Positions 406 through 19,878 are shown, counted from the first letter of the stretch. The stretch is 64,000 nt of DNA from Candidatus Poribacteria bacterium (GCA_965207855.1 OZ242310.1:1811600-1875599), one strand, 5' to 3'. Numbers and translations are program-made. Notes: a model not told the origin generated them from the letters alone.

Positions 406-3400
406 CTACTTCCGAATCAGCATCTTCCGCGTTGATGTGAAATCGTCTGCTTTTAAAGTATAGAAATAGATACCACTCGCAACAGGTTCACCGACGTTAT
501 TTCTGCCATCCCAGTATGCCGCACGGCTACGACTCTGATAGATACCCGCAGGCATCAGCCCTAACGCCAACGTCCGAATCTTGGTGCCATTGACAGCATA
601 AATCGTCAAGGTAACCTTCGCAGGTTCGGAGAGCTGATACGGTATCCACGTCTCCGGATTGAAGGGGTTCGGATAGTTTGGCAACAGTGCTGTCTCTTCT
701 GGGATTAACAATGCTAAGAGACTTTGCAGGTAAGCAATGCCCTGTCGGAAGATAACAGAACCGTCATCTTCAATCTGGGCAAGTTTTATCCATGCCTGTA
801 TCATCGCAGGATCCAACCCCTCTACACTGTTCATAACAAGCATCGAAGGCGACGCTGCTACCGTTGACTCACCGAGATGTTGAGCAACAACGACGAGATC
901 CAAGATACTGATACTCCCATCACCGTTGACATCTGTTCGGGTGCCAGAGGACACTGCCTTTCCAAGGTCTTGTGCGATGAGAATCAAATCTAAAATGTTC
1001 ACGTGCCCATCGGTATTGACATCCCAACGCAGTCGGTGCTGCACTGCCAAAGCAACTTCATGAGGGCCAGCAGGGATTGCGCGACCTGTGACATCACCGA
1101 ATCGAAAGTTATTGAGCGTTATTTGTGTTTCACCCCCGGCTTTTGCTGCAAAGGTTACCGAGAGCAGCAGCCCTGTGCCACTGACCCCGTTTTTATTCTC
1201 TTGTGTTTCACTGAGACCTATAATCCTGCCCGTCCGATTATTAATCCTTCCTTTCTGAAATCGGGTTGCTTCCCCTGCCGACCCGAGAAAATAGCCTTTT
1301 CGGACTTCAGTTGCTTCAAGGTGTGCGGGATCAAAGTCGATGTCAAACTTCCATCCTGTTAAATCGGTTGCATCCTCTGCGTAGATGTCAAGTGTGAACG
1401 TATCACCTGTAGAGATCTCAACATTGGGCAGGACGTATCCGATGCCAGCAAAAGGTCGCACGGTATATTCCGCATCCGCTTGGAATCCAAAAAAGCCACT
1501 CCATCCGCCAGTTCGGTTTTCAACAGCGACTAATAATGTATTTCTTCCCTGTTTTAGGGTGACTGGGAAAGAGCTCTGGTAATTAGAGGCACCCCGCCCA
1601 GCGATCTCCTCACGAACAAGTTCGCCGTTGAGCCAGACCTTGACGCTGTCATCGCTGCCAACAAACATCCTTGTGTTCTGTTCTTTCGGTGTATTTAAGG
1701 CGATGAAGCCGTAAATGACACGGTCGTTTCCGTTCCAACCGAGAGATCTCGTCATATCGGTGATATTATTTCCACCGCGCTCGGAAATTTTCAGAGGTGT
1801 CCAAATATAGTCACCAAAGGTGTCTCCCGGTGCTACACCGGTAGTTGCGATGCGTTGTTCTGTAACATTACCACCACTCGCTTTCGCCAGCAGGTCTGTG
1901 GTTTTGTCAAGACGTTCATCCGGCACCAGCACCCATAGCCACGGACCGACTATTTTCGGACCGCCGCTATTTGGATCAACAGAGCGTGTGTCGGTGGTCT
2001 CAGTCTTCGCTAAAGCAGGGAGCATGTGTTCAAAAAACGCGCTATGCTCGTCTTTGGCGGCATCTACCCATGTGGGGAGTACTCCCAATCGTCGCTGGAG
2101 TTGTGCCTCGTAAAGGGAATCAGGAGAGACGTGGGTTCCGAATCCCTCGATGTAGGCATTGCGGGGAATAGCCCCCCCGAGCGTTTTGTATCCGATCAGG
2201 TTGCCCTGCGTGACCGCAAAACTCCCTCCACTGGGGGTCCATAGGTTAAAGGTGCTGCTATCGGCAACGTTGTTGTTCCAGCGGGTGTATCCATCGAGAT
2301 GATGTGGCAAGTTCCCTGGTGCCCCGCCGCACGCCTGATGGTTGTTGCTATTGTAATTATCGAACAGCGTATGACGAGGCTGTGCACCGTGCGTATCAGG
2401 ACCGTTTGTGGCGGGACCCTCAACATGCCATACAACGCATCCTGCCGAGTAGTGCGACACAGCCGCACCATGCCACATACCTCTGTCCGAATAATCCTCT
2501 AAGAAAGCATTAAAGCAATATGTTGAATAAGTAATAGTACCTAAGTTATGTCCAAACCTACCATCAACTATATTGCTAAGTGCCGAGCTACTATAAGACG
2601 CATGAATGCTAAATGTATCAATAACATTTGAAAACCTGCAACGCCGAATCCATGAATGGGCAGTATGCCAGAGCATGATACCGCCCCGTCCCTCTTGAAC
2701 AAGATGCTCGTAAGTTTCCTGTAGGTTGCCGTCTATGTGCAAGTCTTCAAAACCAATGCCGATCGTCATATCTCGCCAGTTGACGTTGAAGTTTGAATTG
2801 AGATGGGTCAGCACTGGTGCTTTGACATAAACCCGGTCTCCGACGATACGGTCAATTTCATGAATTTCGTTTACGTCAATGCCGTCTCGGATGTTCGTGT
2901 ATGCCTCAGACATCTCTGTCGTTGGTCGGGAAGAATATTGATGCCAGTCGTCTCCGAGCAGTCCATTCGCTCGGATTTCGATGAACCTGCGGTTTCTAAG
3001 ATGGCTGACATTCTCTACATCAAAGTGTCGTGTTCCCCTTGGGAAGGAGCCTTTGACGCGGGTAGACGAACCTTGACCGTTTGACCGCCAACGGGTCTTA
3101 AACAAATGCAGACCGTTTGTCAAGTCGTTGTGCATCTTGATGGTAGTTCCACCAGAGGCGGCACCTTCTGCGCCGCTGCCTCGAACGATGACGTTGTCCC
3201 CTGATACGATGATCTGGTCCGTCGGTTCACCGTCAAGGAGGACATCATAGTGTCCAGGTGGGAAAAACACAATACCGCCTTGGTGACCGGTATAAGCAGC
3301 ATCAAGGGCAGCTTTGATGCCCTCAGTGTCTGATTTCTCGTCATCCGGGACGGCTCCGTAATCGGTCACATCGAAAACTGTCACGGCAGAGACTTCGGGT

Positions 3401-3639
3401 ATTGCCGCCTCGCCGTTTTTGTAGCCTGTGTAGGAGTAGTCGATCAGATCAGGTGTTCCCGCAGGGACGGGTTCACCGATGAATTTTTTCCAGATGTTCG
3501 GCGTGATTTGTGCTGAGGCAAGCGGCAACAAGAGCAGGAACAACGATGCGGCGACTGACCAATTTCTCACTTTGTTAATCATCATTTGTTTGTTCTCCTT
3601 TCTTGAGATAGGTAAGGTAAAAGCAGAAAGTACCAACAA
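406..3639 (-). CDS. Large secreted multidomain protein with a right-handed beta-helix (pectate-lyase-3/GH28-like) N-domain, PA14-like domain, cohesin-like domain, two dockerin-type repeats and a Por/T9SS-type C-terminal sorting domain
   Basis: 1077-aa ORF. Signal peptide LLLLPLASAQ. 'VTDYGAVPDD...GGIVFFPPGHY' beta-helix N-terminus. 'VKVWLNGELV...LKQGRNTLLVAVEN' PA14-like. 'DVNTDGHVNILDLILIAQ' and 'DVNGDGSISILDLVVVAQ' dockerin repeats. C-terminal 'LLPNYPNPFNPETWIPYQL...YWDGRN...SGIYFYTL'. Confidence 0.75.
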   Translation of the reverse strand: MLVLSAFTLPISRKENKQMMINKVRNWSVAASLFLLLLPLASAQITPNIWKKFIGEPVPAGTPDLIDYSYTGYKNGEAAIPEVSAVTVFDVTDYGAVPDDEKSDTEGIKAALDAAYTGHQGGIVFFPPGHYDVLLDGEPTDQIIVSGDNVIVRGSGAEGAASGGTTIKMHNDLTNGLHLFKTRWRSNGQGSSTRVKGSFPRGTRHFDVENVSHLRNRRFIEIRANGLLGDDWHQYSSRPTTEMSEAYTNIRDGIDVNEIHEIDRIVGDRVYVKAPVLTHLNSNFNVNWRDMTIGIGFEDLHIDGNLQETYEHLVQEGRGGIMLWHTAHSWIRRCRFSNVIDTFSIHASYSSSALSNIVDGRFGHNLGTITYSTYCFNAFLEDYSDRGMWHGAAVSHYSAGCVVWHVEGPATNGPDTHGAQPRHTLFDNYNSNNHQACGGAPGNLPHHLDGYTRWNNNVADSSTFNLWTPSGGSFAVTQGNLIGYKTLGGAIPRNAYIEGFGTHVSPDSLYEAQLQRRLGVLPTWVDAAKDEHSAFFEHMLPALAKTETTDTRSVDPNSGGPKIVGPWLWVLVPDERLDKTTDLLAKASGGNVTEQRIATTGVAPGDTFGDYIWTPLKISERGGNNITDMTRSLGWNGNDRVIYGFIALNTPKEQNTRMFVGSDDSVKVWLNGELVREEIAGRGASNYQSSFPVTLKQGRNTLLVAVENRTGGWSGFFGFQADAEYTVRPFAGIGYVLPNVEISTGDTFTLDIYAEDATDLTGWKFDIDFDPAHLEATEVRKGYFLGSAGEATRFQKGRINNRTGRIIGLSETQENKNGVSGTGLLLSVTFAAKAGGETQITLNNFRFGDVTGRAIPAGPHEVALAVQHRLRWDVNTDGHVNILDLILIAQDLGKAVSSGTRTDVNGDGSISILDLVVVAQHLGESTVAASPSMLVMNSVEGLDPAMIQAWIKLAQIEDDGSVIFRQGIAYLQSLLALLIPEETALLPNYPNPFNPETWIPYQLSEPAKVTLTIYAVNGTKIRTLALGLMPAGIYQSRSRAAYWDGRNNVGEPVASGIYFYTLKADDFTSTRKMLIRK

Positions 3640-4359: not shown

Positions 4360-5520
4360 ATGAATTTAAGAAAAATGGCAACGTTGGCATTTGTGGGTCT
4401 GCTCAGTGCTTTAACGATTCTGTTTTCGGGTTGCCAGCGGATGGCACCGGTGGTGCGTGATACCCAAACCATGCCGGTAATGGCTGAAGACATTCCTATC
4501 GGTATAGCCATCTCACTGACGGGACCTTTCGCCGAACCGTATGGGTTACCGATGCAACGCGGTCTTGAGTTGGCGCGTCAAGAGATTAATATGCGCAGCG
4601 ATACGCACCTGACGTTTATCACTGTGGACGCAGAAAGCACCCCAGCAGGTTCTGTTGCAGCCGTTGATCACTTGGTCGATCAAGGTGTTCCCGCTATCGT
4701 CGGGATCGGTATTTCAACGCATCTTGAGCAAGCTTTTCCGATAGCTCAGCGCAATGGTGTTGTCGCTTTTAGTCCGATCTCCTCGGCGACGGGCCTCAGC
4801 GCACTTGGCGATTATATCTTCCGTGCCGGTCTCACTGTGGGTGTGCTGAACTCAGATTGTACGGTCGTGACACACCAGATACTCAAGTATAAAACAGCGG
4901 CGCTGATATATGATATCTCGGACACTTACTCGAGAAGTAGCAACGCGACGTTTGAGGAAACGCTTGAGATACTCGGTGTCGAGATCCTAACGGTGGAAAC
5001 CTTTCGTTCGGGTGAAACCAATTTTTCTGAGCAACTCAGCAATATCAAGCGTCTGGCACCTGAAGCCGTCTTTGTCTCTACGCTCGCACCAGAGATGCCG
5101 AAGATTATAGCGCAAGCGCGGGAAATCGGGATCCCTGATGATGTTCACATTATCGTTCCTGATTTGACCAGAGACGAAGTTCAGAAAGCGGGACTTGCCG
5201 CCGAAGGTGTGATCACTTTTAGTGGGTGGTATAGTATGGCGGAGACACCTGGGAACCAAGCCTTCGTTAGCAACTATAAAGCGACGTACGGTATTGCGCC
5301 TGAACGCTGGGCAGCAGAAGCGTATGCAACACTGTATATTCTCGCTAACGCCATCGACAACGCCGGCTCGATGGACGCTGCGGCGATTCGCGATGCCTTG
5401 GCAGAGACGTGGGAGTATCCGACGATTTTAGGCAATTTCTCTTTCGACCCCGATGGTGAGGCAATATATGATCCGAATGTATTTATCGTCGAAGACGGAG
5501 AACTTCAGCTTTTTCAGTAG
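4360..5520 (+). CDS. ABC-transporter substrate-binding lipoprotein, PBP type 1 (LivK/branched-chain amino acid-binding family)
   Basis: 386 aa; lipobox LTILFSGC; family-typical 'AIVGIG...NGVVAFSPISSATGLS...IFRAG' pattern; RBS AAAGGAGA. Confidence 0.8.
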   Translation: MNLRKMATLAFVGLLSALTILFSGCQRMAPVVRDTQTMPVMAEDIPIGIAISLTGPFAEPYGLPMQRGLELARQEINMRSDTHLTFITVDAESTPAGSVAAVDHLVDQGVPAIVGIGISTHLEQAFPIAQRNGVVAFSPISSATGLSALGDYIFRAGLTVGVLNSDCTVVTHQILKYKTAALIYDISDTYSRSSNATFEETLEILGVEILTVETFRSGETNFSEQLSNIKRLAPEAVFVSTLAPEMPKIIAQAREIGIPDDVHIIVPDLTRDEVQKAGLAAEGVITFSGWYSMAETPGNQAFVSNYKATYGIAPERWAAEAYATLYILANAIDNAGSMDAAAIRDALAETWEYPTILGNFSFDPDGEAIYDPNVFIVEDGELQLFQ

Positions 5521-5638
5521 CATTAGTATCCGATGAATATAGGCAGGGCCTTTGCGATCGTAATGGGTGTGGGACAACGCGATTAGGCGAAATTTCCGCG
5601 AGTCCCACCCCCTTATTATCACTAAGCCCATAACAACA

Positions 5639-5670
5639 AAGGGGTGCTTGCGAAATCGCAGCACCCCTTC
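5639..5670. other. Near-perfect 12-bp-arm palindrome/hairpin between the two PBP1 paralogs
   Basis: aaaggggtgcttgcgaaatcgcagcaccccttc read directly. Lies inside the ORF-finder's N-terminal extension of the second PBP gene, which argues for the ATG at 5678 as the real start. Confidence 0.5.
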
Positions 5671-5677
5671 TAAGAAC

Positions 5678-6871
5678 ATGGAGAAGATTTTGAACGCTAA
5701 ATTTTTCGCTTTTACATTCCTTTTTGCTATTGCTCTGTTTCTCGTGGCTATGATGGGTTGCGAACGCATGGCAAAGGTTACCCATCCTATGACGCAGCGA
5801 GAAAGTCTGAGCAAAGAGGTCAGTATTGGTATTGTCCTACCACAGACAGGATACTTGGGACCGACTGAATTCGGTCCGGGTGCTTTGGTAATGGAGAATG
5901 GTTTTAACTTGGCACTTGAAGAGATCTACGCATCAGAAATGCCCGGTGATATAAGGTTCAAATTCATCGTTGAAGACGATATGAGCACTGTGGAGGGGGC
6001 GATTGCGGCCTTCAATAAGTTGATTCATCAAGACAAAGTCCCTGTTATTCTCGGGGTCTGGACATCACACGTTGCGCGTCATGTTTTTCCAATAGCACAG
6101 GAGAACGGAGTAGTTGCTTTTTCCCCTGTCGTTATCGCCACTGGCTTGACGGAGATAGGTGATTTTATTTTCCGTGCGAGTCATACGGCAAACCAACTGC
6201 TGCCTGAAGGGGTCAAGGCAACACACGAGAGACTTGGATATCAGCGGGTGGCGATGATCGCGGATAGTGTTGATTTAGCCTCTCGCAATGCCGATGAAGT
6301 GTTTAAGAAAACACTCACTCAAAACGGTGTTCGAGTGCTGACTACGGAGACTTTTGAAACCGGTGATACCGACTTTTCTGCTCAATTAACTCGGATAAAA
6401 GCGTCGAATCCGGAAGCGATTTTCGTTTCAGCGCAACAGATAGAGACGATTCACATTCTTAGGCAAGCGCGAGAAATCGGCATACCTAAAGATAAGCCGT
6501 TTATTTGTTTTATCCTCTCTATAGACGAAATCCAAAAATTAGGAGATGCCGCCGAGGGAGCGATAACTTTTACGGATTGGGTCAGCACGCAGGATACACC
6601 GGGAAATCGGGCTTTCGTTGAGAATTATACGGCGAAATACGGTATGGAACCCAGTGTCTGGGCTGCACAGCCGTATGCGGCTGTCTATATCCTCGCCGAA
6701 GCCATCAAAAATGCAGCATCCACCGATTCAGTAGGCATTCGGGACGCGCTCACTGAGATTAAAGATTTCGACACCATCTTAGGGAAGTTTTCTTTTGATG
6801 CCACAGGAGACGCTATTTATGATCCGGTTATCCTGATTGTTAAAGATGGCAAACTTCAGCACCTTGAGTAG
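5678..6871 (+). CDS. ABC-transporter substrate-binding lipoprotein, PBP type 1, tandem paralog of 4360-5520
   Basis: Internal ATG with signal peptide MEKILNAKFFAFTFLFAIALFLVAMMGC; collinear similarity to upstream paralog (ILGVWTSHVA / NGVVAFSPVVIATGLT / IFRASHTANQ). Confidence 0.8.
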   Translation: MEKILNAKFFAFTFLFAIALFLVAMMGCERMAKVTHPMTQRESLSKEVSIGIVLPQTGYLGPTEFGPGALVMENGFNLALEEIYASEMPGDIRFKFIVEDDMSTVEGAIAAFNKLIHQDKVPVILGVWTSHVARHVFPIAQENGVVAFSPVVIATGLTEIGDFIFRASHTANQLLPEGVKATHERLGYQRVAMIADSVDLASRNADEVFKKTLTQNGVRVLTTETFETGDTDFSAQLTRIKASNPEAIFVSAQQIETIHILRQAREIGIPKDKPFICFILSIDEIQKLGDAAEGAITFTDWVSTQDTPGNRAFVENYTAKYGMEPSVWAAQPYAAVYILAEAIKNAASTDSVGIRDALTEIKDFDTILGKFSFDATGDAIYDPVILIVKDGKLQHLE

Positions 6872-6903: not shown

Positions 6904-9900
6904 TTAGTGTGGATTCGGCGGAGATGTTTTTGGGAGTCTATAAACGCCCCGTCTGACTTTTTCGATCTCGCCGAGTTTTGTAAGTCGTGTGAGTTCCTTA
7001 TGTATTGCTTGTGGGTGCCCATCAATAGACGTTCTCATTTCAACCATTTCTTTCTCACCATCAGCCAGCAAAGACAAAATTTGTTCTCTGAAGGTTACGC
7101 GTGGGATGTTGCCGCCTCTGAGTTTCTTCAGCGTGCGGTTGGCTTGCCGTGAAGAGCATCCGAGTACACGTTCAACTTCAATTCTGGGGGTCTCGGCTGT
7201 TAGATTTTCGCGTTCGGCTTCAAACTGCTGGCGAACCGCGATTGTCTCTGTGAGTTTGTCAAGGCTGCCGGCTAACTCAAAATCTTCCCAATCGAAAAGA
7301 AGTGTTTCGGGTCTATCAGTGATGTTGGGAATTTCAAGGCTATTAATCAAAACAACCTTCTTATTGCGCAAGCGGTTCAATCCTGCCCGTCCGATAATCT
7401 CTGTGATTACGTCTGCAACGGTCTGTGTATAAATTCTCTGAATGCGTTCATCTTTATAGTGTTGGAACTCTATGTCTGCTTCATAACAAAGCGGTTCCTC
7501 ATCGTTCCCAAGTAAGATTTGCGCCCACCTCCACATGGCACCCGGTTCCCAATACGGCGTGCCAACGATCCAAACGACTTCTGCTGCTTCAAAAGCAGTC
7601 TCTAAATTGTTCTGGGTTTTAAATTCTGTCAATAAACAGACATTTTCTTTTTCTCTGATATCTCTCAATTGTTCTATGATTGGATCATAGGTAATGATAG
7701 CATGCTTAACGCTCGGATCCCTTTCAATCTCCGCACAGATACCGAGGAGAAAACGTTCTCCCATCTTAGACAACCCAATCACATCCCAAGTGCTGTCATA
7801 GTCTAACAGCGTTTTTAGGGTATGGACCCCAGACCGAATCTGAAAAACTTGGTTTCCTGTTACCCAAGGTGTCGGGCTGATATGGATAGTCTTGATTTCT
7901 TCATCTGGAAACGCTTTATGGAAATCTTGCTTAGACAACGTTGCTGACATCAAAAGCAGCCGCTTTATACCTGGGTGCAACACCGGTGGAACCCAAAACC
8001 ATAAAACATTGTTATACCATATCATCGGCGCATCGGCATCCCGGGAATAATGTGAAAGGAAACGCTTAAGTTGATGCCAAAACGTCCAGTTCGGATTCCG
8101 ATAGACGCTCGGAAATTCCCGAATCTTCTCGACTGTCCGCATATCCAAAATACCTAATCGGATTGCTTGTTCAATCGACATCGGGATCCTTACATCCTCG
8201 TCAAGCACAAAGGATTCGGGTTCAAAAATTGATAGTCCCCTCGCCATGAGTTTATCCGCAGTACTGATACTGAGAGGAATATGAGCGGAAACACCTCCTT
8301 CAAACTCAATAGTAAAACGCGACAATTCCTCTTCGGTCCCCTCATCAACGGTACTTTGCTCGATAACTCTACATCTCACATTGACTTGGCACATCTGTCT
8401 AATGAGTTCTGCTTCATGCTGTTGAAATGCTTCCGCCACCGTCCGGATCCGTTTGACAACAAGATTATCAGAGGTGTTTTCAATCTCCAAGGCGTACAAT
8501 AAAGTCCGCGCGAAGTTCCCCAACGCGCTTGTCTGCCAGTTTACACTCCACGCCTCTAATCTGTTCTTGGATATGTCACATTTCAAAAACATTTTATCCA
8601 TCTTCATTCCATCGATAATGTAAAGACGTTCTGTGTCATCAATCGGCTCAGGCAGGTCTTCTATCACTGCCAATTCTTGGGGATCCAAAAACGCTTGGGG
8701 GTGCCCAAATATTTGCGTTTTGGCACGTTGTAATTTAGGAGTCTGTGATAAGTAACCGCGCTCCTGACACGCTATATAAACGGGACACCCTGGACAGAGG
8801 ATTTTAGTCGAATCTACTTCCTTTTCCAGAAGTGCTATGAATCGCTCTGGATCCTCACAAACATTCCCGCGTTCAAAAGGGGTCTCCATCCGCGCCTCAA
8901 CGGGTATCTCCTTGACCTGATCCCATAGGAAACTTACGCGTCTCCAGCGGGCAACCGATGGTAAGTTTCGTCTTTGGAAGTGTCCCATCGCTTTTTCCAC
9001 TATTGTGAAGTCCGCACTAAAACTTGCTGCGTCTTCCCTGAGAAGATGTGATTCCACTTCATAGTTATGTCTTGCTCCCGTTTCGGCGACAAGTCCAATA
9101 ACACGGGCATCCGTGTGAAAGGCACTCTGTATCTGAGCGATATTCTTCTCAAGTGCCTCGTAAACCTTCTCGGTACCTTCTGGCTTCTGCAGCACAGAAG
9201 CGGGGCGTTTTATCCCCAATGGGCTAAGTTTTCCATCCCGCACGGAACGCACTTTCTCAGATACGGGCAATCCAGTCGCTCGGATCAGTGGCAGAATACC
9301 CGTATCGTCCCAGACATCTGTGATTCGCGTGTCCTCTGTAGGCAATCCAACACCCGACGTAGATGCCCGCAGCCATATCTCGCCATTGCGTTCCCATAGC
9401 AACACGTCTGTGCTGTCATCCCCAACAGGCTCTTTACGCCAGCAATGAAAACCGTTCTCGTTTCTGAGATAAGAAAATCCGCGTTTCAAAAACGCCTCTT
9501 TTGCAAGATCCAATTTATGCGATCCGAGCGATGGCGGCGGCGTGACAAGAACTTCCGAAGTAGATCCCGGTTTCTCTGTTCCAAGCAAATCGGGTTCGTG
9601 AAGTCTCTCCCGGAGTGTATCAATAGTTGTAAAGAGAACCTCTTTCGCAATCATGGGCGGATTCAACAGATCGCCTTGTAGGACCTCGTAACGCGCATCC
9701 CAAGGACTGTGCCCGGCTTCTCCAAGAATTTCAAGATATACATCCCGTTGATGCAGATTTTCCGATGTCGGCATGTCCTTGTAGATGTAAAACCTGTCAT
9801 GCTCGGTACCTGGATGCAGATAATCCGGGACTCTGCAAGAGAACCGCAACCCACCAGACTTTGTTAGCGTCAACAGTGGGTTTTTTGTAACACTAATAAG

Positions 9901-10317
9901 TGCTTCAATACAAGTGAAAACAGTGTCAGGTGCCGCACAAATTGCTTCATATTTAAACTCCAGGTCGTGCCATCGGGCACCATTGTGTTCGGATGGGATT
10001 CCTGTATATATATGAATCCCCCATGATGTATGCCATTGTCTCATCTCCCAATTCTCGATCTTTTGACGTTTCAAAAATCGTTCACCGCCAAAAGATTGTG
10101 GAACTCGATCATACCCAGGCACCCCTCCGACTGGCATAACGGAGATATTCGCCTGCTCCAAGTCATAGAGTCGCACAGGATATCTGTGCGCGCAATAGGC
10201 TGTGAAGTGGTAAAGAAGTCCCTTATAGATCGCAGGTGTTACAACGGTTTTCCGTTGTTGAAGTGGATTCTTATGTCGCTGATGACAGCGTTGAATAATA
10301 TCTTTCAAGGAATTCAT
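6904..10317 (-). CDS. Large (1137 aa) cytosolic hypothetical protein: N-terminal segment weakly primase-polymerase-like, Cys cluster CPGCPVYIAC, C-terminal winged-helix-like DNA-binding segment
   Basis: Single uninterrupted ORF, no signal peptide. 'WHDLEFKYE' / 'TKSGGLRFSCRV' / 'LEILGEAGHSPWDARYEV' resemble PrimPol motifs I-III only loosely. C-terminal '...REQILSLLADGEKEMVEMRTSIDGHPQAIHKELTRLTKLGEIEKVRRGVYRL' is typical of a wHTH. Confidence 0.6.
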   Translation of the reverse strand: MNSLKDIIQRCHQRHKNPLQQRKTVVTPAIYKGLLYHFTAYCAHRYPVRLYDLEQANISVMPVGGVPGYDRVPQSFGGERFLKRQKIENWEMRQWHTSWGIHIYTGIPSEHNGARWHDLEFKYEAICAAPDTVFTCIEALISVTKNPLLTLTKSGGLRFSCRVPDYLHPGTEHDRFYIYKDMPTSENLHQRDVYLEILGEAGHSPWDARYEVLQGDLLNPPMIAKEVLFTTIDTLRERLHEPDLLGTEKPGSTSEVLVTPPPSLGSHKLDLAKEAFLKRGFSYLRNENGFHCWRKEPVGDDSTDVLLWERNGEIWLRASTSGVGLPTEDTRITDVWDDTGILPLIRATGLPVSEKVRSVRDGKLSPLGIKRPASVLQKPEGTEKVYEALEKNIAQIQSAFHTDARVIGLVAETGARHNYEVESHLLREDAASFSADFTIVEKAMGHFQRRNLPSVARWRRVSFLWDQVKEIPVEARMETPFERGNVCEDPERFIALLEKEVDSTKILCPGCPVYIACQERGYLSQTPKLQRAKTQIFGHPQAFLDPQELAVIEDLPEPIDDTERLYIIDGMKMDKMFLKCDISKNRLEAWSVNWQTSALGNFARTLLYALEIENTSDNLVVKRIRTVAEAFQQHEAELIRQMCQVNVRCRVIEQSTVDEGTEEELSRFTIEFEGGVSAHIPLSISTADKLMARGLSIFEPESFVLDEDVRIPMSIEQAIRLGILDMRTVEKIREFPSVYRNPNWTFWHQLKRFLSHYSRDADAPMIWYNNVLWFWVPPVLHPGIKRLLLMSATLSKQDFHKAFPDEEIKTIHISPTPWVTGNQVFQIRSGVHTLKTLLDYDSTWDVIGLSKMGERFLLGICAEIERDPSVKHAIITYDPIIEQLRDIREKENVCLLTEFKTQNNLETAFEAAEVVWIVGTPYWEPGAMWRWAQILLGNDEEPLCYEADIEFQHYKDERIQRIYTQTVADVITEIIGRAGLNRLRNKKVVLINSLEIPNITDRPETLLFDWEDFELAGSLDKLTETIAVRQQFEAERENLTAETPRIEVERVLGCSSRQANRTLKKLRGGNIPRVTFREQILSLLADGEKEMVEMRTSIDGHPQAIHKELTRLTKLGEIEKVRRGVYRLPKTSPPNPH

Positions 10318-10767
10318 CGGTCCGTCTCCATTATAATGCGTGGAATGAATTTAGGTGGTATTTGTATTTATCTGATACAGAAAATTATTTTACATTCAGT
10401 TTTTTAGGAGTGCTTTCAAGAACTGTATGATACATAATATCACAAATATTCCTCTTATTCAAGTTTTTCAGCGGTAGGTATCCACAGAAAAGGGAAGGAC
10501 AGAAGACATGAGCAATGAAGTGCCAGCACTTATTTACGCCAAAAATCAGTAAATTCAAAACAAGTTTTTGTGAAACTTCCATTTGACTTAATGCGTTAAT
10601 CAGTGTTAAGACATTTTATTTATATAGTTAATAGTATCTAATAATATGTCTTAATACTGATAATCTTGACGTGAAAATCGGGGAGAACGTAGCAGGTGGA
10701 AAAGTAAGTCCTGTTGCGATTGATATTCCTACCGCACAAAAATCTGAATCTGAATAGGAATTTAGCT

Positions 10768-12408
10768 ATGAAAACAGTATTGAGAAGAACAGGAAAAATC
10801 GCTTTGGTTATCTGTTTGCTGATGTTCAGCATACAAACTTTTACCTACTGCCAAGATGCGGATGAGATCAGACCCGTCACTATGCGCACAGACAGAGTCC
10901 GCGAGGCGATTGTCGCAGCCGTTCCAGGTATAAATGCCGCTGCCGATGTCACTGAAGAGCACCTCGCAGCAATTACAACCCTCGATCTCAGCGGACAGGG
11001 AATCCTATCGCTTGTCCTTGGCGATTTCGATGGGCTCACCGGACTGACAAAACTCGATCTCGGAAGGAATGATTTGCTGTTCCTGCAAAGCAATATGTTT
11101 GCGGGTCTTAGCGCACTTGAAGAACTCAATCTCGCATACAGTGATTTCGAGGCGTTGCCAGAAGGGATATTTGATGAACTCACAGCTCTGAGAAAAATCG
11201 ATCTCTCAGGCAATAAGTTCACGACCTTACGCAGCGACGTTTTTGAACACAATACCGATCTCACACACATTGATTTACGCGACTTGAACCAAAGCACGTT
11301 GACGACTTTACCCGACGGCATTTTCGATAACAATACCCGTCTCACACATCTTGATTGCTACTGGGGCGTGTTGATGACTTTACCCGACGGTATTTTCGAT
11401 AACAATATCAACCTACAGGAGGTCGCGTTCAACCACAACAAGCTGACTTCTTTACCCGACGGTATTTTTGATAACAATACCAGTTTACAGGTTATCAATT
11501 TTAGATACAACGCGTTGATGACTTTACCCGACGGTATTTTTGATAACAATACCAACCTACAGCGTATCTATTTCGACAGCAACAAGTTGACGACTTTACC
11601 TGACGATATTTTTGACAACAATACCAATCTACAGCGTATCTGGTTTGAAGACAACAAGTTGACGACTTTACCAGATGGGATCTTTGTAGGACTGACTCAG
11701 TTGAAAATTGTAAATCTCTGGCGTAACGACGGGGACGGTCCTATCGGTATTTTAACACTCCCTATCCTGTTAGAAGTGGTCGAAAACCAAGCGGGACAGT
11801 TCAAGGTGAAGATACCTTCTGGGACCCCTCTCAATTTAACCGTTTCGCTAACTGCTACCAACGGAACCATCGCTAATTCAGTGACGAGCGTCACAATTCC
11901 TGCTGGGGGGTCGGAAAGTGATGCACTTACGGTAACACGCACCGCCGGAACAATGGGTGCTGTCACTGTAGATGTCGGGACTTTGCGGTATGGACCTGGA
12001 TCACGTATTGTGGGCTTCTACTTCGTCAAGTCCGATAGCCTACCGTTGGAAATCTTTGAAGCCGCTGCGGGGGCGGCGGCACCCCCTCTCGTGAACGATA
12101 ATAACGCAGCACCTAATGCCACGCAACTCTTAGCGAACTTCCCAAACCCGTTCAATCCTGAAACATGGATACCCTATCATCTCGCTATGCCAAGCAACGT
12201 CAGCATTAGCATATACGACGCACACGGCAGAATCGTCCGAGACCTACACCTCGGGCATCAACAACAGGGATACTACACCACACAGAGCAAAGCAGCATAT
12301 TGGGACGGTAGAAACAACATCGTTGAACCCGTCGCAAGTGGTGTCTATTTCTACCAACTCCAAACCGATCATGCCTCAGTTATGCGAAAGATGCTCATCC
12401 TGAAATAG
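10768..12408 (+). CDS. Secreted leucine-rich-repeat (LRR) protein with Ig-like region and Por/T9SS-type C-terminal sorting domain
   Basis: Signal peptide MKTVLRRTGKIALVICLLMFSIQTFTYC. ~24-aa repeats 'L(T/M)TLPDGIFDNNTxLxxIxFxxNKL'. C-terminal 'LLANFPNPFNPETWIPYHL...YWDGRNN...SGVYFYQL...RKMLILK'. Confidence 0.85.
   Translation: MKTVLRRTGKIALVICLLMFSIQTFTYCQDADEIRPVTMRTDRVREAIVAAVPGINAAADVTEEHLAAITTLDLSGQGILSLVLGDFDGLTGLTKLDLGRNDLLFLQSNMFAGLSALEELNLAYSDFEALPEGIFDELTALRKIDLSGNKFTTLRSDVFEHNTDLTHIDLRDLNQSTLTTLPDGIFDNNTRLTHLDCYWGVLMTLPDGIFDNNINLQEVAFNHNKLTSLPDGIFDNNTSLQVINFRYNALMTLPDGIFDNNTNLQRIYFDSNKLTTLPDDIFDNNTNLQRIWFEDNKLTTLPDGIFVGLTQLKIVNLWRNDGDGPIGILTLPILLEVVENQAGQFKVKIPSGTPLNLTVSLTATNGTIANSVTSVTIPAGGSESDALTVTRTAGTMGAVTVDVGTLRYGPGSRIVGFYFVKSDSLPLEIFEAAAGAAAPPLVNDNNAAPNATQLLANFPNPFNPETWIPYHLAMPSNVSISIYDAHGRIVRDLHLGHQQQGYYTTQSKAAYWDGRNNIVEPVASGVYFYQLQTDHASVMRKMLILK
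11053..11743 (+). repeat. Tandem LRR-coding repeats (about 72-bp period) inside the LRR gene
   Basis: Near-identical DNA units, e.g. 'actttacccgacggtatttttgataacaataccaa' repeated at least 6 times between 11300 and 11690. Confidence 0.8.
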
Positions 12409-18993: not shown

Positions 18994-19878
18994 ATGCAAT
19001 CCACAACAGAGCAGCGAAACCTGAATTCTACCGAAATTGACCTGAAGTCGATTTCAGAAATCGTCCAAATCTTTCACGAAGAGGACCGAAAAGCGGTTGC
19101 AGCTGTTGAGGCAGAATCCGATGCAATCGTACACGCAATTGATTTGTGTGTTACTGCGTTTCGCACCGGTGGCAGGCTATTCTATATCGGCGCAGGCACG
19201 AGTGGTAGACTTGGGGTCTTGGATGCTTCCGAATGCCCACCGACCTTTAGCACGCCTCCTGAGATGGTCCAGGGGATTATTGCAGGTGGTGATGTCGCCC
19301 TGCGTCACGCTGTGGAAGGTGAAGAAGACAGACCTGAACGTGGTGCACAAGTTATCAGGGAACGTCAACTCACACCGCAAGATGTACTCGTCGGAATTGC
19401 GAGTAGTGGACGCACACCTTATGTCATCGGGGCTTTGAAGGAGGCTCACGCTATCGGCGCAACGACGATATTTTTGTGTTGTGTTCAACCGCCTGAGCAA
19501 CTTAAAGAGTGGGTGACGCATTTCGTTGCACCGATTGTCGGTCCCGAAATCATTACAGGTTCGACGCGTTTGAAGGCTGGGACAGCCACAAAACTCGTCT
19601 TGAACATGCTGACGACTGTTTCTATGATAAAATTGGGCAAAATCTACGACAATCTGATGGTAGATGTCCACGCTTCTAATACCAAGTTAGTTGAACGGAG
19701 TATACGGATTGTCCAAGCCGTCACTGGCGTTGATGCTGCGGTGGCTGAAGCGACGTTAGTACAGGCAGGCGGGCGGGCAAAATTGGCTATTGTAATGCTT
19801 GCAAAAGGATTGAACCCGACAGATGCAGACGCACTATTAGAAAGACATTCGGGTTTTCTAAGAAGCATTCTCGAATAA
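18994..19878 (+). CDS. murQ: N-acetylmuramic acid 6-phosphate etherase
   Basis: SIS domain 'GGRLFYIGAGTSGRLGVLDASECPPTFSTPPEMVQGIIAGG', collinear with E. coli MurQ from its Met1; ATG at 18994 after GAAGGA. Confidence 0.85.
   Translation: MQSTTEQRNLNSTEIDLKSISEIVQIFHEEDRKAVAAVEAESDAIVHAIDLCVTAFRTGGRLFYIGAGTSGRLGVLDASECPPTFSTPPEMVQGIIAGGDVALRHAVEGEEDRPERGAQVIRERQLTPQDVLVGIASSGRTPYVIGALKEAHAIGATTIFLCCVQPPEQLKEWVTHFVAPIVGPEIITGSTRLKAGTATKLVLNMLTTVSMIKLGKIYDNLMVDVHASNTKLVERSIRIVQAVTGVDAAVAEATLVQAGGRAKLAIVMLAKGLNPTDADALLERHSGFLRSILE

Follow-up and report, generated by a model that had tools for sequence, protein, structure and literature searches.

A Poribacteria protein family that resembles a primase-helicase with decayed ATPase motifs

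The gene described here lies on the minus strand of a 64,000-nucleotide stretch of Candidatus Poribacteria DNA (GCA_965207855.1 OZ242310.1:1811600-1875599), termed the window, which carries a single copy of it. It is a complete open reading frame (ORF) of 1137 codons plus a stop, the largest in the window (the next largest encode 1077 and 1062 residues), which agrees with an earlier interpretation made from this DNA alone, termed here the sequence-only reading, that had singled it out as the largest non-secreted ORF. A GGAG is located 8 nt upstream of the ATG and, since the N-terminal residues of the protein are conserved among homologs, the ATG start is sound. From N- to C-terminus the protein is predicted to comprise an archaeo-eukaryotic primase (AEP)-like domain, an α/β middle domain, a helicase core resembling XPD and DinG that includes a four-cysteine cluster and has decayed ATPase motifs, and two helix-turn-helix (HTH) domains (Table 1). 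With a probability of roughly 0.6, the gene is an exapted, host-captured mobile-element primase-helicase with a disabled motor, which sponge-symbiont bacteria appear to have put to another DNA-related use.

Searches of the protein against Pfam, NCBIfam, PHROGs and PADLOC, and against the PDB with phmmer, revealed only weak matches to the C-terminal winged HTH (wHTH) and marginal matches to WhiB. An AlphaFold2 model was built from a 64-sequence family-wide alignment (predicted local distance difference test score (pLDDT) of 85.8; predicted template-modelling score (pTM) of 0.78), while an earlier model from 36 close homologs had a pLDDT of 57 and an unfolded N-terminus. In the family-wide model pLDDT is mostly above 85 over the helicase core, falling below 50 at residues 415-417, within the degenerate Walker A. 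Structural similarity search using Foldseek against the PDB placed XPD/Rad3 proteins in the first nine positions (E of 3.6e-10 to 5.7e-8, probability of 1.0, ~660-760 aligned columns). They include XPD (PDB code 9p55; E of 3.6e-10), XPD (3crv; 1.1e-9) and Rad3 (5fmf_Y; 2.9e-9), together with XPD 4a15 and 2vsf, and were followed by UvrB and CasDinG (7xex; 2.2e-5). Based on the model, residues ~400-1015 appear to constitute an XPD/DinG-like superfamily 2 (SF2) core, with helicase domain 1 (HD1) followed by helicase domain 2 (HD2). The order of elements along the chain is motif I (411-418), the cysteine cluster (487-517), motif II (566-571), a 177-residue insertion (584-760) and motif III (789-793). 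The insertion is predicted to be α+β and is placed where XPD has its Arch domain, although the match to the Arch topology derives from whole-chain Foldseek alignments of ~700 columns and is putative. At the sequence level the relationship is hardly detectable, and neither DEAD_2 nor Helicase_C_2 of Pfam matched the query or any of 16 relatives scanned singly. The helicase core of the relatives showed weak DEAD, ResIII or PriA motif-I matches only, and PDB profile searches gave only marginal motif-I matches to Prp43 (DEAH), UvrB or reverse gyrase. The core thus belongs to no described sequence family and is not captured by Pfam, NCBIfam or PHROGs.

The motor signature of this core has been lost in the Poribacteria sequences. 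Motif counts compare 120 Poribacteria sequences with distant relatives at 25-35% identity, in which motif-intact members display Walker A aDTGxGK[NTD], Walker B hhDE/DD, motif III MSAT and motif VI QAhGRARL. At Walker A, position 416 is Gly in 54/58 distant relatives and Arg in 110/120 Poribacteria sequences, while position 417 is Lys in 55/58 distant relatives and in none of the 120, such that the Gly-Lys pair is kept in 0/120. Walker B is similarly affected: position 569 is Asp in 62 distant relatives and Ser in 72/120 Poribacteria sequences, and position 570 is Glu in 48 and Asp in 14 distant relatives and Ser in 70/120. Within motif VI, 63/68 distant relatives have Gln-973, which no Poribacteria sequence keeps (0/120), and position 979 is Arg in 60/68 distant relatives, compared with Gly in 117/120 and Arg in 2/120 Poribacteria sequences. 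A motif scan identified no GxxxxGK[ST] or canonical P-loop in the protein, as the sequence-only reading had remarked when it reported no Walker motifs, but the dead XPD/DinG-like helicase core had gone unseen. Because the Walker motifs are intact in relatives, their absence here reflects secondary loss and is not evidence of a non-ATPase fold.

The cysteine cluster has, by contrast with the motor motifs, been retained throughout: C487, C508, C511 and C517 are each present in 120/120 Poribacteria sequences and in 61-62 of 62 distant representatives. The segment CPGCPVYIAC, which the sequence-only reading had reported as a possible zinc ribbon, is indeed present (C508-P-G-C511-P-V-Y-I-A-C517) and its cysteines are invariant, but the fourth member, C487, which precedes C508 with an x20 spacing, had been missed and the zinc-ribbon assignment was not borne out. 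XPD carries its iron-sulfur (FeS) domain at the equivalent position, between motifs I/Ia and II (PMC11981726). As the four cysteines occupy this XPD 4Fe-4S site, the zinc-ribbon assignment was rejected and, by analogy, they more likely bind an Fe-S cluster than zinc. The zinc finger of the family is located elsewhere, between the AEP domain and the helicase, and its ligands are absent in the Poribacteria clade. A marginal WhiB-like profile match was also observed at residues 488-520 (E of 0.2; PDB WhiB E of 0.8).

The N-terminal domain displays pLDDT values of mostly 82-96 and is among the most conserved regions in Poribacteria. The sequence-only reading had described here a weak resemblance to the three primase-polymerase (PrimPol) motifs, with the motif-II histidine replaced, and the strings on which it relied were all located (D118-L-E120, S154-G-G-L-R-F159 and L195-E-I-L-G-E-A-G202). 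Conservation of the putative catalytic residues sustains this assignment: D118 is found in 119/120 Poribacteria sequences, R158 and H168 in 120/120 and E196 in 116/120. Position 120 is Glu in 62, Asp in 41 and His in 15 of the 120 and Asp/Glu in distant relatives, while the counterpart of R158 in distant relatives is Arg in 27 and Lys in 8. In the model, D118/E120, G-L-R158 and E196 are predicted to lie on consecutive strands. Foldseek against BFVD revealed many proteins annotated as bifunctional DNA primase/polymerase N-terminal (E of 7e-9 to 1e-4), including R9ZWI1, a 331-aa phage PrimPol (E of 2.8e-7, TMt of 0.45), as well as helicase-size matches. As a control, the fold search with the poor 36-homolog model yielded small HTH matches only and so did not assign the PrimPol matches to any one domain. 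Replacement of the motif-II His by a basic residue is a hallmark of BT4734-like AEPs, and the active enzyme AgaPP displays DFD / GLK / VD (PMC11724360). The replaced histidine is thus a family trait and not a defect.

Further evidence for the primase assignment was provided by distant relatives in which the same helicase core is preceded by a different N-terminus, several of them matching BT4734-like_N and PriCT_2 of Pfam (in P0184, E of 1.4e-21 and 1.8e-12, respectively). These BT4734-type relatives also match PrimPol_Db of NCBIfam, "CRISPR-associated primase-polymerase type B" (E of 1e-25), and PHROG DNA primase families. The N-terminal type of the query, in contrast, is matched by neither PF08800 / NF040562 nor any other NCBIfam or PHROG model. 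On the basis of the model and its motifs, the N-terminal domain would both look and work like a BT4734-like AEP; the evidence for this is good but not conclusive, and membership of the family is not proven.

In relatives that share the N-terminal type of the query, the next module is a CHC2-like zinc finger (C-x4-H...C-H-N-C), the zinc finger being the usual companion of primase domains according to an AEP survey (PMC5862659). In the motif-intact relatives of this N-terminal type, P0145-P0266, aligned to query residues ~290-330, a zinc-finger-like motif, YPC-x-hT-x-H-[KR]...Q[FY]Y...G-x-I-x-a-[FY]-C-H-N-C, is conserved, and that of P0145 weakly matches the N-terminus of the PHROG DNA-primase family phrog_47 (E of 0.008). 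Position and an NG[EQ]I stretch suggest that the middle domain of the query is homologous to this finger; a cysteine at position 292 (the count may refer to position 294) is present in only 12/120 Poribacteria sequences. Just before the helicase core, query residues 360-378 (RDGKLSPLGIKRPASVLQK) conform to a linker motif, R-x-G-x-[LA]-SPL-x3-R-x4-L, conserved in motif-dead members and in many, not all, active ones, whatever their N-terminal type. This linker could serve as a docking peptide or form part of HD1.

The C-terminus comprises two HTH domains. In Poribacteria the first contains proportionally more invariant positions than any other domain, and here distant relatives match HTH_23, HTH_38 and Sigma70_r4. 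The second is a wHTH, modelled as three helices followed by two β-strands (H-H-H-β-β), for which a sub-threshold AbiEi-type match was obtained at residues 1100-1132 (AbiEi_4 of Pfam, E of 2.8e-4; AbiEi of PADLOC, 4.8e-5). PDB profiles of MarR/ArsR matched at ~1e-3, and Foldseek identified small ArsR/MarR HTH proteins. The C-terminal wHTH ending in GVYRL (G1124-V-Y-R-L1128) that had been proposed from the sequence is therefore supported, being recovered by the AbiEi_4 and PADLOC profiles, by MarR/ArsR profiles and by Foldseek.

Table 1. Features of the 1137-residue protein and its gene; positions refer to the window.
Feature	Position	Strand	Basis or comparison
Complete ORF, 1137 aa + stop, ATG start	6904..10317	minus	
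AEP (primase-polymerase)-like domain, residues ~40-240	9598..10200	minus	model, Foldseek, conservation
AEP motif I, D118-L-E120 (DhD/E), end of strand 114-121	9958..9966	minus	model and alignment
AEP motif II equivalent, S154-G-G-L-R158, BT4734-like GLK type with Arg	9844..9858	minus	alignment
AEP motif III, L195-E196 (hD/E), on strand 190-198	9730..9735	minus	model and alignment
α/β middle domain, residues 266-335, site of relatives' CHC2-type zinc finger, no Zn ligands	9313..9522	minus	
XPD/DinG-like SF2 helicase core (predicted), residues 400-1015: HD1 with FeS and Arch-like insertions, then HD2	7273..9120	minus	Foldseek, model
Degenerate Walker A (motif I), A411-ETGARH-N418	9064..9087	minus	relatives aDTGxGK[NTD]
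Four-cysteine cluster, C487-x20-C508-x2-C511-x5-C517, putative 4Fe-4S, between motifs I and II	8767..8859	minus	
Degenerate Walker B (motif II), Y566-IIDG-M571	8605..8622	minus	relatives hhDE/DD
Arch-like insertion, residues 584-760, between motifs II and III	8038..8568	minus	model secondary structure and position
Helicase motif III, L789-MSAT793, retained	7939..7953	minus	alignment
Degenerate motif VI, E973-IIGRAG-L980	7378..7401	minus	relatives QAhGRARL
First C-terminal HTH, residues 1041-1070, GCSSRQANR (family-wide GxSxRxAxR)	7108..7197	minus	
Winged HTH, residues 1071-1130, AbiEi_4/MarR/ArsR-like, ends GVYRL	6928..7107	minus	
Promoter-like TTGAAT-17-TATTAT with extended -10 TG	10434..10462	minus	consensus match only

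A word-indexed search retrieved more than 1300 homologs, of which the top 120 present 63-74% identity and are mostly full length (~1130 aa). A 100% identical protein, P0001, is encoded on a 5.2 Mb contig. The few named entries are Candidatus Poribacteria, as are all nine loci recovered from GTDB species genomes (9/9), and the close homologs with an identifiable source are all from Poribacteria (sponge symbionts and possibly free-living relatives). As the genome scan used exact peptide patterns, copy number per genome is a lower bound: a single 5.02 Mb contig carries at least three copies (P0039, P0072 and one more) and OX638316.1 carries two. The third paralog of the former (1127 aa, with a faint AbiEi_4 match) occupies 19379-19417 of locus L002, continuing past the locus end, and lies ~8 kb from P0072 in opposite orientation, so that some copies are locally clustered; a 1280-aa WD40 protein, an LRR/dockerin protein and small ORFs separate the two. 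Flanking genes are common to related genomes for the same paralog (L001~L013; L002~L011~L009) and not between different paralogs. No recurrent mobile-element family was detected in 68 flanking ORFs from ten loci, and a search for terminal repeats or conserved flanking elements present at every paralog was negative. One 45%-identical member (L017) sits among asd, dnaJ, lepA, lepB, selB, lipA and dapB.

Pairwise ratios of nonsynonymous to synonymous substitution (dN/dS) against paralogs and orthologs are 0.14-0.19 overall, at dS ~1, and range from 0.09 to 0.38 in every region, with the lowest values in the AEP domain, HD2 and the C-terminal wHTH region. By column entropy within Poribacteria, conservation is lowest in the parts of HD1 where Walker A and B used to be, and highest in the AEP core, the cysteine domain, HD2 and the first HTH. 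The gene is real and under purifying selection and, given dN/dS well below 1 at dS ~1, shared flanks and the multi-copy state, it is a functional, vertically inherited and duplicated chromosomal gene.

When 1.84 billion cluster representatives were searched exhaustively with phmmer, 432 matched at E<=1e-3. In a rough neighbour-joining tree of the helicase core the motif-dead sequences form one clade, sister to the active P0145/P0147 lineage, and some basal members are partly intact (P0123, for example, displays GAGKS and DE). The four neighbourhoods of motif-intact relatives that were read are all phage-, plasmid- or integrative-element-like (4/4). They contain an integrase, ParA, TrwB/DUF87-like and AAA_25 genes (L003), two integrases, BrnT and a Type ISP restriction enzyme (L004), an integrase and many small ORFs (L005) and, for the closest motif-intact relative (L016), Sipho_Gp157, DUF5131 and ParA, as well as a ribbon-helix-helix antitoxin, several methyltransferases and an exonuclease-like gene. 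The contig of this last relative, ctg464598_17x_c (89,705 bp), carries the label "_c", and its circular-looking name makes it a candidate phage-plasmid from an uncultured host; a tblastn search of the closest active relative against sequenced plasmid and phage collections gave no match. Sister clusters of this relative are found on contigs of 86.2 and 86.4 kb. The suggestion that the protein is a domesticated replication-initiator-like protein thereby receives backing from both the tree and the gene context of active versus Poribacteria copies, the latter being chromosomal, multi-copy and free of recurrent mobile-element genes.

In the favoured interpretation, an exapted primase-helicase, the ancestor would have comprised an AEP domain, a zinc finger (or PriCT-2), an XPD/DinG-like SF2 helicase with the four-Cys cluster, and HTHs, a layout that persists, with intact motifs, on phage-, plasmid- and integrative-element-like contigs. 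By analogy with other mobile-element primase-helicases, the ancestor may have recognised an origin, unwound DNA and primed synthesis. In the lineage leading to Poribacteria the motor would have been disabled by loss of the Walker A Gly-Lys, the Walker B Asp-Glu and the Gln and second Arg of motif VI, and the zinc-finger ligands would also have been lost, leaving residues 266-335 as a ligand-less α/β domain. Strong purifying selection has continued to act on the AEP motifs and the second RecA-like lobe as well as on the four cysteines and the HTHs, and the gene has duplicated within the chromosome. The present protein would most likely be an ATP-independent DNA binder, contacting DNA much as a non-translocating XPD would, via an FeS/Arch/HD2 surface together with the two HTHs. 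Its BT4734-like AEP domain may still perform template-dependent nucleotidyl transfer, an activity that would suit repair, damage tolerance or priming.

Several observations weigh against this interpretation. The tree is a simple neighbour-joining tree without support values, and the Foldseek fold evidence is whole-chain, the aligned query residues not being reported. Pfam returned nothing at E<=10 for ten N-terminal domains of this type, and hhalign of the N-terminal profile against BT4734-like profiles gave probabilities below 4%. Residual AEP activity is doubtful: the zinc-finger ligands have gone in the Poribacteria clade, 15 of the 120 sequences carry His at the second acidic position of motif I, and the motif III Glu is lost in several deep members of the dead clade (Lys in P0128 and P0134, Asn in P0135). 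Finally, the gene has neither a conserved partner nor a regulatory signal that would indicate a pathway.

An alternative is a complete pseudoenzyme, in which helicase and primase-polymerase would both be dead and the protein would act only as a sequence- or structure-specific DNA-binding scaffold or transcriptional regulator via its HTH/wHTH and FeS domains. Lost zinc-finger ligands, His at position 120 and deep clade members lacking the motif III acid are in keeping with this, as are the top fraction of invariant positions in the first HTH and the resemblance of the wHTH to AbiEi, MarR and ArsR regulators. However, conservation of D118, R158, H168 and E196 reaches 97-100% in the main Poribacteria group, constraint on the AEP core is among the strongest in the protein and exceeds what a mere scaffold would usually need, and 1137 residues is large for a simple regulator. 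A complete pseudoenzyme, the most probable of the rival explanations, is unlikely. A bolder proposal, that a redox-active Fe-S module "frozen" in an XPD-like form senses a DNA lesion or structure without ATP and recruits a still-active BT4734-like primase-polymerase for repriming, repair or immunity, is tentative and likewise unlikely. If true, it would describe a lineage-specific system built from a captured mobile-element replicase and thus a new kind of cellular DNA-transaction factor, and the motif-intact relatives would be a previously unrecognised AEP-XPD-like primase-helicase class on phage-plasmids and integrative elements.

It is improbable that the family serves as an anti-mobile-element decoy, whose motor-dead copies would bind origins or partners of related phage-plasmids and block their replication, with paralogs covering several elements. 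The nearest active relative examined does lie on the 89.7 kb phage/plasmid-like contig, the HTH that it has in common with the mobile-element proteins has been retained, the gene is multi-copy, its wHTH is of AbiEi type and BT4734-like AEPs have been linked to defence systems (PMC11724360). Nevertheless, orthologs occupy loci common to genomes, beside housekeeping genes in at least one case; defence genes are usually patchy and variable; purifying selection acts everywhere with no fast-evolving specificity region; and no defence genes are adjacent, PADLOC matching the wHTH only. The literal reading as a functioning replicative primase-helicase, or as the protein that initiates replication of an integrated mobile element, fits the primase, helicase and wHTH layout of mobile-element replication proteins (PMC5862659). 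It is very improbable and was rejected: Walker A, Walker B and motif VI are all destroyed, no integrase, partition or transfer genes were found nearby, the GC content of the ORF resembles that of the window (0.467 vs 0.476) and paralogs lie at loci common to genomes. A functionless decaying relic, which the disappearance of several catalytic motifs might suggest, is contradicted by dN/dS of 0.1-0.3 at dS ~1, by the many full-length homologs and by the invariance of the cysteines and many other residues, and hardly merits consideration.

The protein shares features with several known systems. XPD/Rad3/DinG proteins, including CasDinG, provide the best structural match to the model and share with it two RecA-like lobes, a four-Cys domain between motifs I/Ia and II and a large, putatively Arch-like insertion at the position of the XPD Arch domain. 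Differences are that even motif-intact relatives lack DEAD_2 and Helicase_C_2 matches, that the cysteine spacing (C-x20-C-x2-C-x5-C) is WhiB-like and not XPD-like, that functional ATPase motifs are lost in the Poribacteria clade and that the core is fused to AEP and HTH domains, an architecture absent from the ten DinG-like subgroups of a 2025 review (PMC11981726). WhiB-like Fe-S proteins have the spacing C-x(n)-C-x2-C-x5-C, but their match to the cluster is not significant and the cysteines lie here in a helicase insertion and not in a small transcription factor. With BT4734-like (VirE-N) AEPs, such as AgaPP and CRISPR-associated PrimPol type B, the query shares DhD/E, G-L-[K/R] replacing sxH, hD/E and a conserved His ~10-15 residues past motif II, and homologous helicases carry genuine BT4734-like_N and PriCT_2 domains at the same position. 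In contrast to these AEPs, the query N-terminus has no profile match and has Arg for Lys, and the next module is a zinc finger (in relatives) or a ligand-less domain and not PriCT-2 with a VirE/DUF3987 ATPase.

Mobile-element primase-helicases (pRN1 ORF904; PrimPol with D5/SF3 or RepA-like helicase and winged helix) show the same order of functions, described in the AEP survey as AEP, Zn-binding or PriCT module, helicase and a winged helix thought to recognise the origin (PMC5862659), and the active relatives of the query share their mobile-element context. They differ in the helicase itself, which in the query is XPD-like SF2 with a Cys cluster and not SF3, SF4 or MCM, and in the state of the query copy, which is chromosomal, multi-copy and motor-dead. 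The last 60 residues match the AbiEi_4 winged helix and MarR/ArsR folds, but the resemblance to the AbiEi antitoxin is limited to the wHTH at scores below the Pfam cutoff, with neither the AbiEi C-terminal domain nor an AbiEii toxin gene nearby.

AEP-helicase fusions and pseudo-helicases are both of known kinds; the lineage-wide, multi-copy, motor-dead version appears to be new as far as could be found. Known AEP-helicase fusions on mobile elements use SF3, SF4, RepA or MCM-type motors, and several hundred clusters here join AEP to an XPD/DinG-like core with a Cys cluster. The combination of AEP with an XPD-like Cys-cluster helicase was not found in the available part of the AEP survey (PMC5862659), and nothing relevant was found in the literature on Poribacteria and primase. 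Under the favoured interpretation the Poribacteria family would clearly exemplify how a host can take over a replication protein from a mobile element, and the protein would offer a natural "ATPase-null" XPD-like scaffold for probing Fe-S and Arch modules without translocation. The gene family could also serve as a Poribacteria marker.

The region upstream of the ORF (10318-10713) is AT-rich (GC of 0.33), as the sequence-only reading had held for both flanks, but the downstream gap is only 32 bp with a GC of 0.53. Its description of secreted-protein neighbours without mobile-element genes matches the nine ORFs around the gene, in which a domain scan detected no mobile-element domains: they encode a cohesin/dockerin protein, two periplasmic binding proteins, a leucine-rich repeat (LRR) protein with a type IX secretion system (T9SS) sorting tail, an oxidoreductase and a gamma-glutamyltranspeptidase. 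Neither a tRNA nor an Rfam element was identified in the window, and no synteny was observed with the other loci, which have only sorting and dockerin domains in common with it. The tandem Peripla_BP_6 (branched-chain amino-acid type) substrate-binding protein genes (4360-5520 and 5567-6871, plus strand) are convergent with the ORF, ending 32 bp from its 3' end, and no terminator-like hairpin was found in this 32-bp gap. Cohesin/dockerin, LRR, WD40 or Laminin_G proteins with T9SS-type C-terminal sorting domains adjoin several paralogs, in the window (406-3639, minus; 10714-12408, plus) and in the flanks of L002, L007, L009 and L011. This recurrence probably just reflects the general abundance of "eukaryote-like" proteins in Poribacteria.

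Promoter-like sites in the region occur at the number expected from shuffled sequence. A promoter-like block missing in L007, L012, L015 and L017, CTTGA-N17-TG(T)GATATTATGTA, is common to several paralogs, namely those of the window (10434-10470, minus), L001, L002, L009 and L011, and lies ~115 nt before the start codon in the window and ~60-110 nt before it in the other four. The block may have been passed on as a conserved promoter when the gene duplicated, or it may merely match the local strong-promoter consensus.

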